This document shows positions 28,526 through 34,275 of a DNA stretch of 64,000 bases, one piece after another. Source of the stretch: a phage. The translations under genes and the position numbers were made by a program. The stretch lies in sequence record PX969468.1; one strand, 5' to 3'. The notes under the pieces are model-generated. The model made no database searches and was not told the origin of the DNA. It was given only the letters and a program-made list of their open reading frames with translations. Within the stretch, counting starts at the first letter, position 1. Every line of letters starts with the position of its first letter.

Positions 28526-28984
28526 TTAGAAGTTTGTTTTTACACGTCCCTTTTCATCTACCTCATTGTTAGCTAAAAGCGTTACAAAGTCTGTGAAACG
28601 GACATGAAGAACTCTTTTCTTGTCAAGGTATCCTAAAGCCACCCCTGAAAAATTTAGCATCAAGGGGGCTAAAGAAGCTCTAGCACTGAAATGCTGTTGT
28701 TCTACTCTTCCTACACCCTTAGTGTAGGATGGGTTAAGATTGTAAGTTCTGAATCCCAGTTTTGTTGGAGCTTTAGAATTAAAAACAACTTTATAGCGTT
28801 TCTTACTCAACTTATGCTCCAGGATAAGAATTCCCTTATCACCCTTGATAAGTTGAAAATCTGTAAAGTGCTCTTTTAAGACGAAAGGTAGTGCCAGTCC
28901 CATAGCCTGGCCTCTTTGTACCGCTGTCTCACCAAAAGCTTTTGCATCAGTAAGTTCTTTGGTCAAGTCTATGCTTTTGATCAT
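28526..28984 (-). CDS. hypothetical protein (downstream of methyltransferase)
   Basis: Track ORF overlapping the 3' end of the methyltransferase gene. Confidence 0.45.
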   Translation of the reverse strand: MIKSIDLTKELTDAKAFGETAVQRGQAMGLALPFVLKEHFTDFQLIKGDKGILILEHKLSKKRYKVVFNSKAPTKLGFRTYNLNPSYTKGVGRVEQQHFSARASLAPLMLNFSGVALGYLDKKRVLHVRFTDFVTLLANNEVDEKGRVKTNF

Positions 28985-29765
28985 ACCGGGTCTCCAAAAT
29001 GTATTGTAGTTCTTTCTTGCCTATACTCTTCATTCCAGCAGTCTTACCTGCTTCTTCTTGAAAAGAAGAATAGCATTCAGCAAACACTCTGTCAACACCG
29101 TCAACTAAAGATTTTATGAAATATGTAGATTCTTCAGATTTTGGATCATCATCACCCAATACTTTTCCAGCGTTATACCCAACACGTCTTACACAGAAGT
29201 CGTAGTCATCCGGTGTGCCAAAAGAAAATAACTTATTCTCTCCAATCTCTACAGGATCCCTATTGCACGCCTTTTTCTCCCAAATTTGGAAAACACATGG
29301 CACGTCATAAGGTTTGCCATTAAGTAAAAACGAGTTCTTAGGGCACCTTTCGCTGTAGACAAGGTGCATAGACATGTCCAGCCTGTTTGAAAAAAATATT
29401 TTTTCAAATGTCCGTGGCAAGATGAAGGCTATAGCCCCGCCAAGCTCTAGCAATGATGCACAATGGTTAAAGAATTTGCAAGCTAAAGATGAATTCTTAC
29501 CAAACGGTGGGTTACCTATGAAGACATCTGCCTTGGGGTGCACCTCCAAGAAGTTTGCCTGAATGCACGGTGTTGGTCCTTCAAATTCAGGATCTGGTAC
29601 TAAATCGTACGACAGTATCTCTGAAAATAGTTTTGAAAAAGAACCTCTTCCAGCAGAAGGCTCAACGTATGCACAATTCCCATACTTATCTTTTACTTTA
29701 CCAACAAGATATTCTGCATACTCAGGGTTTGTGTAATATTTGTCGTTGGACTCTTTCTTACTCAA
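28947..29765 (-). CDS. DNA N6-adenine methyltransferase
   Basis: Motif I-like VEPSAGRGSF and motif IV FIGNPPFG; probable TTG start preceded by GGAGG. Confidence 0.6.
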   Translation of the reverse strand: MSKKESNDKYYTNPEYAEYLVGKVKDKYGNCAYVEPSAGRGSFSKLFSEILSYDLVPDPEFEGPTPCIQANFLEVHPKADVFIGNPPFGKNSSLACKFFNHCASLLELGGAIAFILPRTFEKIFFSNRLDMSMHLVYSERCPKNSFLLNGKPYDVPCVFQIWEKKACNRDPVEIGENKLFSFGTPDDYDFCVRRVGYNAGKVLGDDDPKSEESTYFIKSLVDGVDRVFAECYSSFQEEAGKTAGMKSIGKKELQYILETRYDQKHRLDQRTY

Positions 29766-29770
29766 AGTGC

Positions 29771-29802
29771 CTCCAAAAGGAAAAGGGAGGCGCAAGCCTC
29801 CC
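29771..29802 (-). terminator. rho-independent terminator (GGGAGGC-GCAA-GCCTCCC plus T-run)
   Basis: 7-bp GC stem with GNRA loop, followed on the minus strand by TTTTCCTTTT; lies between the exonuclease and methyltransferase genes. Confidence 0.6.
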
Positions 29803-29810
29803 TATACTTG

Positions 29811-30794
29811 TTAGATTATCTGAATCAGGGTGTTTTTCATCTCTTCTCGGGTACGGATGTTGTTACGATCACGAACAACAGATCCACAACCTTCGCAGCG
29901 GTATGTTTTAAATGCACTCAGCTGAGTATATGCCAAAGCTTCTTCCTCGTGAAGGTGTTCTCCACCACAGCGTGGGCAACGAACCTTTGGCTCCTCGTCC
30001 TGGTAATACAATGACATGTTTGGGTGTTGCTTAGCAAACGGGCGAGCCAGCAAATACAGTCCTTCCAGAGACAGGATATCACCAACATTATACTCCCGCA
30101 TCTGCTTAAATGCCTCAAGATCACCATGGACACACTTGATCCACATTTCAAATGTGTGATCAATCAGTTTCTGTCGGGCCAGTTGGAAGTATTTGCATGC
30201 ATACTCCAAAGTGTTTGCATTCAAACGGAATGCCTTCTTGATCATTTTAAGGGTGTCAACCTCTTTGTAGGGGCTTGTTGGAGGCAACCCGTGAAATGCA
30301 AATCGTTGGTTGGCCCACCCGCAGTCAAAACCTGAATTGTGGGCTACTGCGACATCGCATTTATCCAGATAATACCACAAATCCTGAATCAATTCGAGAT
30401 CATTGTGAATATCTTCATCCCACATTTTGTAATCTGGAAGAGCGCAGTCAACTACACTAGGGCTGTCTAACCACTTACCTGCGAAAGTTAGCATATAGGG
30501 CATAACTTCAATACCACAGGTTTGAATGTTGGTCTTATAGTGCCCAAAGAACCAGCCGTTTGTTGGGGATGTCTCTGTATCATACACCCAAACTTTAGCA
30601 CCTTTGTGCTCTTCAAGGAAGCGCTCCGTTGCTTCTCCTACAATCTCTGACATATTCTCTTGTGCACGTTTAAGCTGTAGTCGGATCCAGCTCTCACGTG
30701 ACTCACGGCCTAAAAATTCACGAGCAATTTGTCTATTAGTGTATCCCTGTTGCTTTAGTGTTAAAATTTGCTCAAGAGTTAACTTTGTCATCAT
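29811..30794 (-). CDS. DnaQ-like (DEDDy) 3'-5' exonuclease with N-terminal HTH and C-terminal zinc ribbon
   Basis: Exo motifs VWVYDTETSP, AHNSGFDCGW and YNVGDILSLE; C-terminal CPRCG...CEGCG. Confidence 0.55.
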   Translation of the reverse strand: MMTKLTLEQILTLKQQGYTNRQIAREFLGRESRESWIRLQLKRAQENMSEIVGEATERFLEEHKGAKVWVYDTETSPTNGWFFGHYKTNIQTCGIEVMPYMLTFAGKWLDSPSVVDCALPDYKMWDEDIHNDLELIQDLWYYLDKCDVAVAHNSGFDCGWANQRFAFHGLPPTSPYKEVDTLKMIKKAFRLNANTLEYACKYFQLARQKLIDHTFEMWIKCVHGDLEAFKQMREYNVGDILSLEGLYLLARPFAKQHPNMSLYYQDEEPKVRCPRCGGEHLHEEEALAYTQLSAFKTYRCEGCGSVVRDRNNIRTREEMKNTLIQII

Positions 30795-30806
30795 CGTTAA
30801 GATTCC

Positions 30807-31028
30807 TTAGTAAAACTGAAGAATGTCTTTTAAAGCGAAGTCACGATATTCGCCCTTGTCTACATCGAAGGCACGCATCAACCACTGCTCTTCTTTATGA
30901 TACTCTGTAGAGCCAAACCATAAATTAGGCTCAGTAACGCAGCGATCTGCAACAACACCTTTCCAGTTACGGTATTTCATCCTGATCAGGACTGAGTCGC
31001 AAGGATTGAATACCTTTTTCATCCCCAT
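30807..31028 (-). CDS. hypothetical protein
   Basis: Track ORF; overlaps the 3' end of the upstream gene. Confidence 0.4.
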   Translation of the reverse strand: MGMKKVFNPCDSVLIRMKYRNWKGVVADRCVTEPNLWFGSTEYHKEEQWLMRAFDVDKGEYRDFALKDILQFY

Positions 31029-31572
31029 AGAAATCTCTCTCCTCAGTTTTCTTTATAAACTCTTGCATGTAGAACTCAATAGCCTCATGCTTGGTGCACT
31101 CCGGATCAATGACAAGATTGAGATCTGATTCTGCTCGTGCAATAATCGTAGCTTTAGAGCATCTCCTCAAGAACTTTGTCATATCATCTCTGTAGTTTTT
31201 GTGGAGCGGGAAGTCGCTGTAGTCTTTCTCCAAATAGTCAGCCATCCGGCGCAACGCCTCTGATAAACTGCAATCTGTATACTCGTTACAGTATTTCATC
31301 CAGTATTTAAGCACATACCCCTCAAAGGTATTAGTGCATTGAGACAAAACACCCCTGCAACGACCAGTCAGATGATCATGATCTAAACAAGGCTTACGAA
31401 GTGGCTCGCACAAGATCGGATCAAGACCATCCTGCTCCTCTGACAATTCTTTTCGAAAGTTGGCTATGTCCTTAGAATCTTTTAACCACCCGTTATGAAC
31501 GGGGGCTTTGACAGCTTTCTTTCTTATTTTACGCTTTGCGATAATCCCTCCAGATGCGCCCTGCCTATCCAA
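30967..31572 (-). CDS. endonuclease VII-like (T4 gp49-type) junction-resolving nuclease; start uncertain
   Basis: CLDHDHLTGRCRGVLSQCTN matches the EndoVII DHDHxxGxxRGxLCxxCN core. Confidence 0.5.
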   Translation of the reverse strand: MDRQGASGGIIAKRKIRKKAVKAPVHNGWLKDSKDIANFRKELSEEQDGLDPILCEPLRKPCLDHDHLTGRCRGVLSQCTNTFEGYVLKYWMKYCNEYTDCSLSEALRRMADYLEKDYSDFPLHKNYRDDMTKFLRRCSKATIIARAESDLNLVIDPECTKHEAIEFYMQEFIKKTEERDFYGDEKGIQSLRLSPDQDEIP

Positions 31573-32153
31573 TAAGCATCTGCGAGATCGGCCTTACCTT
31601 GTACCAAATTGATCCCATCTAGGAACCCAGGTTCAGATACTTCGCAGGCCTTAACCATCAACTTTTTATCCATTGTAACAGGTTTCTTCACAGTATGCTC
31701 TTTACCTGTCTTTTTGTCAAGCTTTTTCTTCTCCTCGAAAGCAAGTTCCTCAGGAAGATGACTACGAGCAAACTTTTTGGCAGTTGTTGGTGTCACTGTG
31801 TGGACCTTAAACAGGCCGTCATTTTCACAATCAGCTAAGGCATCCCAAAGCATAACTTCAAGACCGTAAAACAACCCAGCCAGTTCACGTGTGGCATCCC
31901 CGCGTGATCCAAAGGAAAGCCCTTCCATAACTACGGTGTCAACGCCGTGCGTGTGGATATAATATCTGACCTGTTTGCAGATCCAGTCAATACGCTCAGC
32001 AGCTGTTGCAAAAGAAACCGTCCCTGGTTTCTTCTCTTTTGCAGATGAGCTTTGAGTTCGTAACACAACCTTATGAACAGGCTTTCCATCGTCCCATACA
32101 ACGCAAGCTGTGTGTGTCAACGACTGGTCTATGGATAATAGACGCTCTCTCAT
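31524..32153 (-). CDS. RuvC-like Holliday junction resolvase (RNase H fold)
   Basis: N-terminal LLSIDQSLTHTACVV and VVMEGLSFG resemble RuvC/YqgF catalytic strands. Confidence 0.45.
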   Translation of the reverse strand: MRERLLSIDQSLTHTACVVWDDGKPVHKVVLRTQSSSAKEKKPGTVSFATAAERIDWICKQVRYYIHTHGVDTVVMEGLSFGSRGDATRELAGLFYGLEVMLWDALADCENDGLFKVHTVTPTTAKKFARSHLPEELAFEEKKKLDKKTGKEHTVKKPVTMDKKLMVKACEVSEPGFLDGINLVQGKADLADAYWIGRAHLEGLSQSVK

Positions 32154-32485
32154 GCTTCCTCATCCTCCTCTCCTTCATCAGGAGCATAAGCCTTATCTTT
32201 GAACAAGACGAGAGAGCAAAGCTTAACATCTGTTTCCACACTGGTGAACATGCATAACCGCTCGCCCTCAATCAGCTCACAATCCTCTTTTAAAACAGCA
32301 GACCATACACGGTCATCTGCGTAATCATCCGTGTACAGGATGTATGAAATGGTGTCATCTTCATACAACCGCCACATACCTGTGGCAACAACGAATGTGT
32401 TTTTTGTTTTAAGTGTCCCTGTTGTATGATCATCCTCAAAAACAGCTTCCATAATTGCGTTATCTACAGCATTTTTAGTCATCAA
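32150..32485 (-). CDS. hypothetical acidic protein
   Basis: Track ORF. Confidence 0.45.
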   Translation of the reverse strand: MMTKNAVDNAIMEAVFEDDHTTGTLKTKNTFVVATGMWRLYEDDTISYILYTDDYADDRVWSAVLKEDCELIEGERLCMFTSVETDVKLCSLVLFKDKAYAPDEGEEDEEA

Positions 32486-33621
32486 ATTGCTCCAACATTT
32501 CTAAGAACATTAACAAGTTTTGTTTGATCATTGAATGTTCGCTTCATATACAAACAGTCAAAAATTATACTCATCCATTGACCTACGGAAATTCTGCGAT
32601 CAATACCATTGAAGTCAGTATACTTAACAACACCTTTCGGGAACCACTTCTTGTACTGATCAATAATAGCCACCCACATCTCCTTTGGAGTGCTGCACTG
32701 AGACAGTAGGTAGAATGCTGAGGCATCCCCGAACTTACCCTTACCGATAAGTCCTTGATACGGCTTGATATTGTCAGCAGAGTCACCACACAGCATTTGG
32801 TATCCGAAGAACAGCATCCCGTAACCACCAACCTCTCCATTAGGCTTCATGAAGATGTTCCCCATACCGTTATCGATCAGCATAGGGGTTTCCCTTACAA
32901 AATCTCCCTTATCGTTTCGCATGGGATCGAACACAAGCCCCGGTAGTGTTCTTTGGTCCTTATCAATAGAGATAATAAACTTGTTGAACTTACCTGTTTT
33001 TTGGTAGTGGTTCCAACCTTCAAATTGCTGGATAGCTAACCAGTCGTCAGCCTCGATACCGTTGATCACTTGAGCATTATACTGCTTTTGGAGATACTGT
33101 CTTGCATCTCCAAGCAGCAGTGGTCGAAGAGTATTGTTACGGTTGGCTTTATATCTTTCCGGCATGGGAAGATCTAGTCTGAAATTACCTGTGCCTCCAA
33201 GTACCCCTACGCACCGATCTTCCGGAATACCGAGATAATTAAGGACTGCATTAGCTTTACACTTAATTGTGTGCAAGCAGTTCTCTACAGGATCAGGGGT
33301 TTGGATATCCAAGACATCGAAATCTTCTCGTGTCCACGGAATAAACTCCTTGCCAGCCTTTTTACATGCAGCTTCACGGTTGGTATTCTCAGCTTTTAAC
33401 CAACCACCAACGGTGTTCTTCTGCCGCCCCCAGAACTCTGTTCGTGTTTTAAACATCTTCTTACGTCCGGAGGCTTTGTGTGTTACCTCAATTGTCCTTT
33501 TTTCACAACTTGCTGCAGCTTGATATGCAACCTGATCGAAGTCATAATAAACTATAGCGTCAGGTTCAAGAAGATCAGCCAGACAATCTATGGACTCAAT
33601 AAGTGGATATTCTCTACTCAA
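32482..33621 (-). CDS. 5'-3' exonuclease / flap endonuclease (RNase H-like)
   Basis: GIEADDWLAIQQ matches the GxEADD motif of 5' nucleases. Confidence 0.6.
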   Translation of the reverse strand: MSREYPLIESIDCLADLLEPDAIVYYDFDQVAYQAAASCEKRTIEVTHKASGRKKMFKTRTEFWGRQKNTVGGWLKAENTNREAACKKAGKEFIPWTREDFDVLDIQTPDPVENCLHTIKCKANAVLNYLGIPEDRCVGVLGGTGNFRLDLPMPERYKANRNNTLRPLLLGDARQYLQKQYNAQVINGIEADDWLAIQQFEGWNHYQKTGKFNKFIISIDKDQRTLPGLVFDPMRNDKGDFVRETPMLIDNGMGNIFMKPNGEVGGYGMLFFGYQMLCGDSADNIKPYQGLIGKGKFGDASAFYLLSQCSTPKEMWVAIIDQYKKWFPKGVVKYTDFNGIDRRISVGQWMSIIFDCLYMKRTFNDQTKLVNVLRNVGAI

Positions 33622-33922
33622 AGACCCTCCTGTTAGTTATTCTGCAAGATGGTTGGATGCTGTAATGGAATGCATCATCACTCTCTGCAATAAGTGACTC
33701 AACATCCCAATACTTTTCAAAAAGGAACGGATTAGACCCCCAGTGGTGGGTTATTTTCATCAAGGAGTCTGGTATCATATAACCACAGATCTTAATTACA
33801 TCGCCAGGTTGAATTGTGTTTTCATGAAGGTTGCTTGCCTTCTTCAGAATCATACCTTTATGATTCTCGTTTGCATACAACTGGACAATATCTTTATCTT
33901 CAACAATAAAAATTTTAAGCAT
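33614..33922 (-). CDS. hypothetical protein
   Basis: Track ORF. Confidence 0.45.
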   Translation of the reverse strand: MLKIFIVEDKDIVQLYANENHKGMILKKASNLHENTIQPGDVIKICGYMIPDSLMKITHHWGSNPFLFEKYWDVESLIAESDDAFHYSIQPSCRITNRRVFE

Positions 33923-33981
33923 ATCTAGTTCTCCTAGTTTATAGATATCTGACCGATAATATCAGATTAATAACACTTTTG

Positions 33982-34275
33982 TCAAGACTTTTTAGTCTTT
34001 CTTGGAGAGCTTTTTGTTGATCTTTTCCTTTTGTGGTAGATTCCAAGTGCAGCGTTTTCTTGGGCGCACGTTTTAACAGTTCTCAGACAAGAACTTTCAG
34101 CTTTAGGCAGGTTTAACTCCCACCAACCAAGCCAGTAAAGTTCTGATTCAGACAACTGCTCAGATTCAGCCTTCCGATACAAGGCTTGCATACCTCTGAT
34201 GATATCGTCCAGAGGTGTATCGAATACAAAAGCTGTCTTATCGAATTTCTCTTTTACAGGTCTCTTAGCCATCAA
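33982..34275 (-). CDS. hypothetical protein (basic C-terminus)
   Basis: Track ORF. Confidence 0.45.
   Translation of the reverse strand: MMAKRPVKEKFDKTAFVFDTPLDDIIRGMQALYRKAESEQLSESELYWLGWWELNLPKAESSCLRTVKTCAQENAALGIYHKRKRSTKSSPRKTKKS

Follow-up and report, generated by a model that had tools for sequence, protein, structure and literature searches.

A conserved near-cognate AUC, rather than the annotated TTG, as the probable start codon of an endonuclease VII-like gene that overlaps a RuvC-like gene in rV5-like phages

Two nuclease genes lie back to back on the minus strand of a 64,000-nucleotide (nt) stretch of phage DNA (sequence record PX969468.1; here, the window): an open reading frame (ORF) of 209 amino acids (aa) encoding a RuvC-like protein, followed by a 201-aa ORF encoding an endonuclease VII (EndoVII)-like protein. 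The two ORFs share 49 nt (31524..31572), which raises the question of where translation of the second gene begins. An earlier note on this DNA had remarked on the overlap and on the absence of an ATG after the upstream stop codon, and it had suggested unusual initiation or coupling from a TTG situated 49 nt inside the upstream gene. The ORF list agrees with the layout described there (209 aa from an ATG and 201 aa from a TTG; Table 1), and the TTG is indeed the first ATG, GTG, or TTG in its frame. The suggestion of an unusual start inside the upstream gene also held up, but the TTG itself is very probably not the functional start. Comparison with related phages instead makes it likely that EndoVII translation starts at a near-cognate AUC codon (31542..31540), which follows a Shine-Dalgarno (SD) sequence embedded in the RuvC-like gene.

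To define the comparison, junction loci were selected only by the protein motifs of both genes, with the RuvC-like gene directly upstream and the two frames in a -1 arrangement. The 25 unique junctions came from Vequintavirus, Seunavirus, Henunavirus, Stephanstirmvirinae, and uncultured relatives and span two phage subfamilies. All of them (25/25) carry an in-frame GG[A/G]GG-N4-AT[C/A] signal in which the 4-nt spacing is fixed. The window version, GGAGGGATTATC at 31551..31540, is located 30 nt downstream of the TTG; variants elsewhere are GGGGG in one lineage and ATA in Henunavirus and Klebsiella phage KP13-16. The spacer and the flanking codons are hypervariable, with ATT, GTT, TTT, AGT, TAT, GCT, GAT, CCT, TTC, AAA, and GAA all found immediately before the ATC. 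The A of the ATC occupies a third codon position in the RuvC frame and never varies, the RuvC codon there being TTA, CTA, ATA, GTA, AAA, TCA, or GCA; A-ending Leu, Ile, and Val codons account for only 16 to 25% of usage in this phage. Likewise, the RuvC-frame Glu at the SD is always written GAG, and the codon preceding it always ends in G. GGAGG-N4-start is also the commonest geometry of the window's own genes (7/22), including the neighboring exonuclease gene. The dual-coding overlap measures 19 nt in 19 of the 25 junctions, and in most lineages the ATC is the only start-like codon within it. In L062 (Henunavirus) and L064 (Stephanstirmvirinae), the AUA overlaps the RuvC-like stop codon (TAATA and ATAG), similar to the coupled TAATG/ATGA layout.

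Substitution spectra were compiled separately for the rV5-like (9 unique junctions) and Seunavirus-like (9 junctions) sets. Upstream of the AUC, 30 of the 32 rV5-like substitutions are synonymous in the RuvC frame, while 31 are nonsynonymous or nonsense in the EndoVII frame. The interval from 0 to +37, which covers the 19-nt overlap, contains no substitutions among the rV5-like junctions, and changes beyond +38 are mostly EndoVII synonymous. For the Seunavirus-like set, the ratio of synonymous to nonsynonymous changes upstream of the AUC is 3/26 in the EndoVII frame and 24/5 in the RuvC frame. Between the RuvC-like stop and the first downstream GTG, the EndoVII frame shows a ratio of 12/5 versus 1/16 and 4/13 in the other two frames. 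Given this difference, the Lys/Arg-rich N-terminal tail of the EndoVII-like protein is translated, and its start must fall within the 19-nt overlap. Judged from the substitutions in both sets, the coding signature switches reading frame at the AUC.

Relatives with an ATG or GTG begin EndoVII at the residue homologous to the AUC. In phiTE and CR3, EndoVII has a GTG located 6 nt after a GGAGG; in L018 and L039, an ATG immediately follows a stop codon; A5-4 has an ATG, and PhAER-4 has a GTG after a stop. Accordingly placed N termini from three protein clusters (P0060, MARTSKRR; P0064, MAKRNKVR; and P0079, MAKKPIIR) align with (I)AKRKIRKK of the window. Certrevirus-like phages (phiTE_168, L006 903-1454) and A5-4 (L063 207-860) contain an ORF of PHROG 12410 between the RuvC-like and EndoVII genes. 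The 3' end of this ORF (…MEGIS…) supplies the EndoVII SD and the GTG or ATG, and the frame relation is +1, not -1. We considered phiTE_168 as a possible RuvC fragment, but it is unrelated (PHROG 12410; BLASTP E = 1.6).

Internal initiation at the annotated TTG, either coupled or without an SD, would yield a 201-aa EndoVII, which might be made in addition to the AUC product as a second isoform. Among the canonical starts of the open frame, the TTG comes first, the annotators of TTG-bearing genomes all use it, and T4 gene 49 offers an example of a gene that makes two nested products. From the upstream in-frame stop, the EndoVII-frame codons are GGC CGA TCT CGC AGA TGC TTA TTG; the first in-frame ATG of the ORF is Met92, past the LDHDH catalytic motif. 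The TTG has no SD, however, as the nearest SD-like purine run ends 19 nt upstream. Its presence follows from the RuvC-frame Tyr-Trp being written TAT TGG, and in other genera, where the RuvC frame encodes Tyr-Leu, TTT is found in its place. Moreover, a RuvC-synonymous GGC-to-GGT change puts an EndoVII-frame TAG between the TTG and the SD together with the rest of the gene, leaving the EndoVII ORF otherwise intact. Carriers of this variant are L008/L030 (a relative with 91% identity), L029 (a metagenomic contig with 96% identity), and nine viable rV5-like isolates (EduardKellenberger, NHEP1, B9-1, S127 BCL3, three SA_NWU phages, ECP2303, and ECP2309). All six rV5-like substitutions between the TTG and the AUC are RuvC synonymous and are nonsynonymous or nonsense in the EndoVII frame. 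In 17 of the 25 junctions, including the nine TAG isolates, the stretch from the upstream in-frame stop to the AUC is free of ATG, GTG, and TTG, and four junctions (4/25) have none before the invariant Trp. The TTG at 31572 is thus probably an incidental codon, and we regard its use as the true start as unlikely.

Two further explanations invoke a frameshift or a start farther downstream. A programmed -1 frameshift at A_AAA_T would fuse the RuvC-like protein to EndoVII (∼394 aa), with the GGAGG serving as a dnaX-type stimulator rather than as a ribosome-binding site. The EndoVII frame is indeed -1 to RuvC, an A followed by a Lys AAA codon directly precedes the stop, and the rV5-like and PVP-SE1-like clades have A_AAA_N with GGAGG 12 to 16 nt upstream; in dnaX, an SD 10 to 14 nt upstream stimulates -1 shifting. 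We nevertheless judge this reading very unlikely. The junction has no X_XXY_YYZ heptamer and no significant downstream structure (z = 0.34), and A_AAA_N is absent in 6/25 junctions (L010, L016, L056, L061, L062, and L064), all of which keep SD-N4-AUC/AUA. In the Certrevirus clade, another gene precedes EndoVII, the frame relation is +1, and the start is a canonical GTG or ATG. No fusion was present among 48 EndoVII-family and 33 RuvC-like-family clusters, whose longest members are 201 and 230 aa, and a frameshift leaves the invariant A of the AUC unexplained. A single GGAGG could also play two roles in rV5-like and PVP-SE1-like phages, as the ribosome-binding site for the AUC and as the stimulator of a -1 slip on A_AAA_N that generates a minor RuvC-EndoVII fusion; we give this combination only a slim chance. 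The fusion would be a single polypeptide with two unrelated junction-resolving active sites. Alternatively, a shorter protein could start at another downstream codon, either AUA 31527, which makes an ATAA overlap with the RuvC-like stop, or a TTG that is codon 33 of the AUC ORF and serves as the annotated start in EduardKellenberger; annotators of TAG-variant phages picked a downstream TTG or ATG. This is highly improbable in our estimation: AUA 31527 is not conserved (GTA in PVP-SE1 and BIS47) and has no SD at a usable distance, while a start at the downstream TTG would cost the protein its invariant Pro24 and Trp29 and a stretch that is conserved in PVP-SE1 and shows a coding pattern of substitution. 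In NHEP1, the product called (110 aa) has no catalytic motif. An ATT at 31545 was also considered as a start and rejected, as only 1 nt separates it from the SD and the codon varies among lineages (GTT, TTT, AGT, and others). The leftover probability belongs to unforeseen mechanisms.

Several points weigh against initiation at the AUC. The GGAGG-N4-ATC motif occurs twice in 64 kb versus 1.4 times expected; thus, its occurrence in a single genome proves nothing, and the argument rests on conservation across lineages. Because each conserved base of the SD and AUC is nonsynonymous in one of the two frames, RuvC residues (Glu and Ser), rather than a start signal, could explain part of this conservation. 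AUC and AUA also both encode Ile; where there is an upstream start, what is conserved could in principle be an Ile residue. The window itself has an in-frame TTG, making a 201-aa isoform possible, and L056, L060, and L061 have an in-frame ATG or GTG 4 to 6 codons upstream of the AUC that they might use. Finally, the SD is missing from Vibrio phage 5P1b, in which the frames are arranged differently.

With initiation at the AUC, the EndoVII-like protein would be a separate 191-aa polypeptide. The GGAGG (31551..31547), a strong SD embedded in the last RuvC-like codons, would position the AUC on the polycistronic mRNA, and initiator tRNA would read this codon as formylmethionine 19 nt before the RuvC-like stop. 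Ribosomes translating or terminating on the RuvC-like gene may keep the site open, which would amount to translational coupling. In Escherichia coli, AUC, AUA, AUU, and CUG initiate at roughly 0.02 to 3% of the level of AUG and yield an N-terminal Met (bioRxiv 10.1101/063800). Because AUC initiates in this range, the dose of EndoVII would be low. We therefore infer low EndoVII expression and coupling to the RuvC-like gene, which would tie a small amount of a potentially toxic branch-cutting nuclease to RuvC-like synthesis.

The closest precedents are infC and pcnB, which both start at AUU and are the only confirmed natural noncanonical starts in E. coli (bioRxiv 10.1101/063800). As proposed for the present case, an AUH initiator is combined with an SD, and expression of those genes is low or regulated. 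In contrast, the candidate codon here, AUC or in two lineages AUA, falls within the preceding gene and in a different frame; the case for it is comparative, and nothing indicates IF3-type autoregulation. Coupled overlapping genes of the ATGA/TAATG kind similarly place the start and SD inside the 3' end of the upstream gene within one operon, whereas here most lineages have a 19-nt overlap and the proposed start is near cognate. We also evaluated a hairpin that would mask the SD and enforce coupling. A 7-bp stem (CAGAUGC/GCAUCUG, 31551-31590, minus strand) can be drawn and extended by GAUCUC pairing with the SD, but the 121-nt fold does not outperform shuffled sequences (z = 0.34) and the stem is not conserved in other genera; the hairpin was rejected. 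Across 23 junctions, the SD-pairing probability was not consistently above that of flank-shuffled controls. An internal sigma-70-like promoter within the RuvC-like gene (31720..31692) was similarly discarded, being a consensus match only in a window where the total count of such matches is not above shuffles.

Profile and fold searches bore out the earlier claim that the two neighboring genes encode different junction-resolvase-type folds, HNH EndoVII in one case and RNase-H-like RuvC in the other. In profile searches of the kind that the earlier note had proposed as a check, the EndoVII-like protein matched PF02945 and PHROG 423, and the RuvC-like protein matched PHROG 159 but no Pfam family. 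For the downstream protein, homology to EndoVII is clear. The ORF matches PF02945 at 31.6 bits versus a gathering cutoff of 23.6 (E = 1.5e-7, residues 38-116) and PHROG 423 "endonuclease VII" (8e-37). Its family profile retrieves T4 endonuclease VII from the PDB (2.7e-14) over T4 residues 9-154 of 157, an alignment that covers the overall fold, including the C-terminal helical (dimerization) domain. An AlphaFold model (predicted local distance difference test [pLDDT] score of 87.6) gave T4 endonuclease VII as its sole Foldseek match in the PDB (E = 2.4e-5, probability of 1.00, 153 columns). The root mean square deviation of this match is high, which we suspect reflects the comparison of a monomer model with chains of the T4 dimer.

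Residues D64, H65, H67, N81, and E84 of the EndoVII-like protein align with T4 D40, H41, H43, N62, and E65 and are invariant in 30 homologues. The protein therefore shares with T4 endonuclease VII (gene 49; PF02945; PDB entries 1EN7, 1E7D, and 2QNC) the HNH (beta-beta-alpha-Me) nuclease core as well as homology over nearly the whole T4 protein. It differs in lacking the four T4 zinc cysteines: the positions of C23, C26, C58, and C61 align with D, L, S, and T. The cysteines that it does contain (C55, C62, C72, and C79) are not conserved in the clade, and no Cys is invariant among the 30 homologues. This clade may accordingly constitute a divergent, zinc-less subgroup of EndoVII, as far as the alignment of residues ∼55-84 (window 31321-31410) indicates. 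Unlike the T4 enzyme, the window protein also has a 20- to 30-residue Lys/Arg-rich N-terminal tail, and its gene, without a canonical start codon, comes directly after a RuvC-like gene. Low, tightly controlled expression, as for the regulated T4 gene 49, is also plausible.

The upstream protein was more difficult to assign. Its ORF matches PHROG 159 "RuvC-like Holliday junction resolvase" (3.3e-39), and its distant homologues P0030 and P0032 (E values of 1e-10 to 1e-8 to the query) carry PF02075. No match was obtained to Pfam at an E value of ≤0.1, to NCBIfam, or in a single-sequence PDB search, so a fold prediction was needed. The family profile aligned only weakly with Deinococcus radiodurans RuvC (E = 0.55), with D9 and E77 at the first two catalytic positions. 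The AlphaFold (AF2) model had a pLDDT of 92.9 and a predicted template modeling score of 0.89, and its best 12 PDB matches by Foldseek are bacterial RuvC proteins (7xhj at 8.7e-8, 4ld0, 6lw3, and 1hjr), with RuvC of phage bIL67 (4ktw) also retrieved. Based on the modeled structure, the upstream protein is RuvC-like with an RNase-H-like fold. E77, D189, and D192 are invariant and D9 is at least 90% conserved in 30 homologues; the catalytic acidic residues of E. coli RuvC are D7, E66, D138, and D141.

Compared with RuvC from E. coli, Thermus thermophilus (PF02075), and bIL67 (4KTW; PHROG 159), the window protein shares the RNase-H-like fold, with template modeling (TM) scores of ∼0.72 to 0.79 when normalized to the target, and places D9, E77, D189, and D192 in the motifs IDxS, xxE, and DxADA. 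It is longer, at 209 aa versus roughly 155 to 170 aa for RuvC, and, unlike in RuvC genes, the final six codons of its gene contain the ribosome-binding site and proposed start of the gene that follows. The additional ∼40 to 50 residues relative to bacterial RuvC are reflected in a TM score of 0.60 on the query versus 0.78 on the target. Extra strands at ∼139-158 (in an extra segment around ∼135-160) and a segment at ∼36-50 have no counterpart in the PDB matches. Both the RuvC-like and the EndoVII-like protein are predicted to resolve junctions.

The 1.7 kb around the locus shares 99.1 to 99.5% identity with many Escherichia phage isolates assigned to Vequintavirus (the rV5-like phages nomine, JohannBauhin, FFH2, Murica, and others), the genus to which the window belongs. 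Phage records that match over at least 80% of the query number 121, and the RuvC-like/EndoVII-like pair is syntenic in these near-identical genomes. The adjacency is kept in Vequintavirus, Seunavirus, Henunavirus, Stephanstirmvirinae, and some Vibrio and Aeromonas phages. Since it is syntenic both in the 121 near-identical genomes and across several genera, the arrangement is not a chance ORF pattern. Every gene of the region is on the minus strand, and the pair probably forms part of a tightly packed operon of DNA-processing nucleases (Table 1).

Table 1. Coordinates of the EndoVII start region, the two nuclease genes, and the surrounding operon in the window
Feature	Coordinates	Strand	Basis or remark
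Proposed near-cognate initiation codon AUC	31540..31542	-	AT[C/A] invariant in 25 unique junctions
Shine-Dalgarno GGAGG, 4 nt before AUC, within RuvC codons Leu-Glu-Gly	31547..31551	-	Cross-lineage conservation
Dual-coding overlap (last 6 RuvC codons + stop = first 6 EndoVII codons)	31524..31542	-	19 nt
TTG annotated as EndoVII start	31570..31572	-	Public records; probably not used
A_AAA_T in RuvC frame, just before stop; only candidate -1 slip site	31526..31530	-	Read from sequence
EndoVII-like gene as proposed, 191 codons, AUC to TAA	30967..31542	-	PF02945 and T4 endonuclease VII profile match; inferred start
EndoVII-like ORF as listed, 201 aa, TTG	30967..31572	-	ORF list and public records
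EndoVII HNH catalytic core, L63-D-H-D-H67 ... N81 ... E84 (201-aa numbering)	31321..31386	-	Alignment to T4 endonuclease VII
RuvC-like nuclease gene, 209 aa	31524..32153	-	ATG start; TAA stop 31526..31524
RuvC-like conserved catalytic-position residues	D9 32129..32127, E77 31925..31923, D189 31589..31587, D192 31580..31578	-	
Probable transcription unit	29784..33985	-	ORFs abutting or with 4-nt start/stop overlaps; promoter and terminator from consensus scans only
Promoter-like site	33985..33956	-	Consensus scan only
5'-Exonuclease gene, 379 aa	33621..32482	-	First gene of run
111-aa ORF		-	Between 5'-exonuclease and RuvC-like gene
73-aa gene, PHROG 3715	30807..31028	-	Overlaps nonconserved EndoVII C-terminal tail by 62 nt
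DnaQ-like 3'-5' exonuclease gene	30794..29811	-	Last gene of run
Terminator-like hairpin	29803..29784	-	Consensus scan; terminator annotated at same place in phage Murica

In this phage group, a RuvC-like gene next to an EndoVII-like gene is nothing unusual, and the pair has been annotated before. The TTG start is annotated with the same coordinates in nomine, JohannBauhin, FFH2, and Murica, and some records name the pair "RuvC-like Holliday junction resolvase" and "endonuclease VII." In the RefSeq record of PVP-SE1, the coding sequence already begins on this ATC. For the TAG-variant isolates, EndoVII is annotated at 159 aa in L068 (MZ501061.1, 1050-1529) and at 110 aa, without the HNH motif, in L069 (PQ511146.1, 1197-1529). 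Literature searches returned nothing relevant on this start codon, on AUC or AUA starts in phages, or on RuvC and EndoVII pairing in Vequintavirinae, and the rV5 proteomics paper makes no mention of the EndoVII gene. What is new here is that the flagged non-ATG start is, on comparative grounds, probably a conserved near-cognate AUC/AUA rather than the TTG.

If this assignment is correct, selection would have maintained an AUC/AUA start in two phage subfamilies, a clean new natural example of noncanonical initiation and one that is directly testable in a K-12-infecting phage of the BASEL collection. It also suggests a way for a phage to keep a potentially toxic branch-cutting nuclease low and tied to the synthesis of a second resolvase. 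Gene callers restricted to ATG, GTG, and TTG give EndoVII at least four starts (201, 164, 159, and 110 aa) that are mostly wrong, one of them without the active site; an AUC start would account for this widespread misannotation in phage genomes. The conserved pairing further raises the question of a division of labor between two resolvases in one phage, of which we found no discussion in the searchable literature.

Other annotation irregularities were observed for EndoVII homologues. PHROG 29095 "endonuclease" matches only residues 110-201 of the EndoVII-like protein, a C-terminal fragment, and this spurious family probably derives from truncated EndoVII calls. In Aeromonas phage PhAER-4, the EndoVII gene is unannotated despite its GTG start.

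Elsewhere in the operon, the 5'-exonuclease gene (33621, minus strand) starts with TTG in GGAGG-N4 geometry (CAGGAGGGTCT TTG); non-ATG starts on strong SDs recur here. The 73-aa ORF gave weak, subthreshold Pfam matches of the WYL/SH3-like type, and relatives annotate three starts for it (73, 71, and 57 aa). The N6-adenine methyltransferase region (28947-29795, minus strand) is a 282-aa TTG ORF in the window, while in phage nomine (L001 827-2066), it is annotated as two overlapping coding sequences of 459 and 819 nt. This gene may be split, frameshifted, or misstarted. Finally, 20 records (MG0656xx) named "Campylobacter phage" (host Campylobacter jejuni) are ∼99% identical to E. coli rV5-like phages over 30700-32400; this degree of identity suggests that they are mislabeled or contaminant genomes and not true Campylobacter phages.

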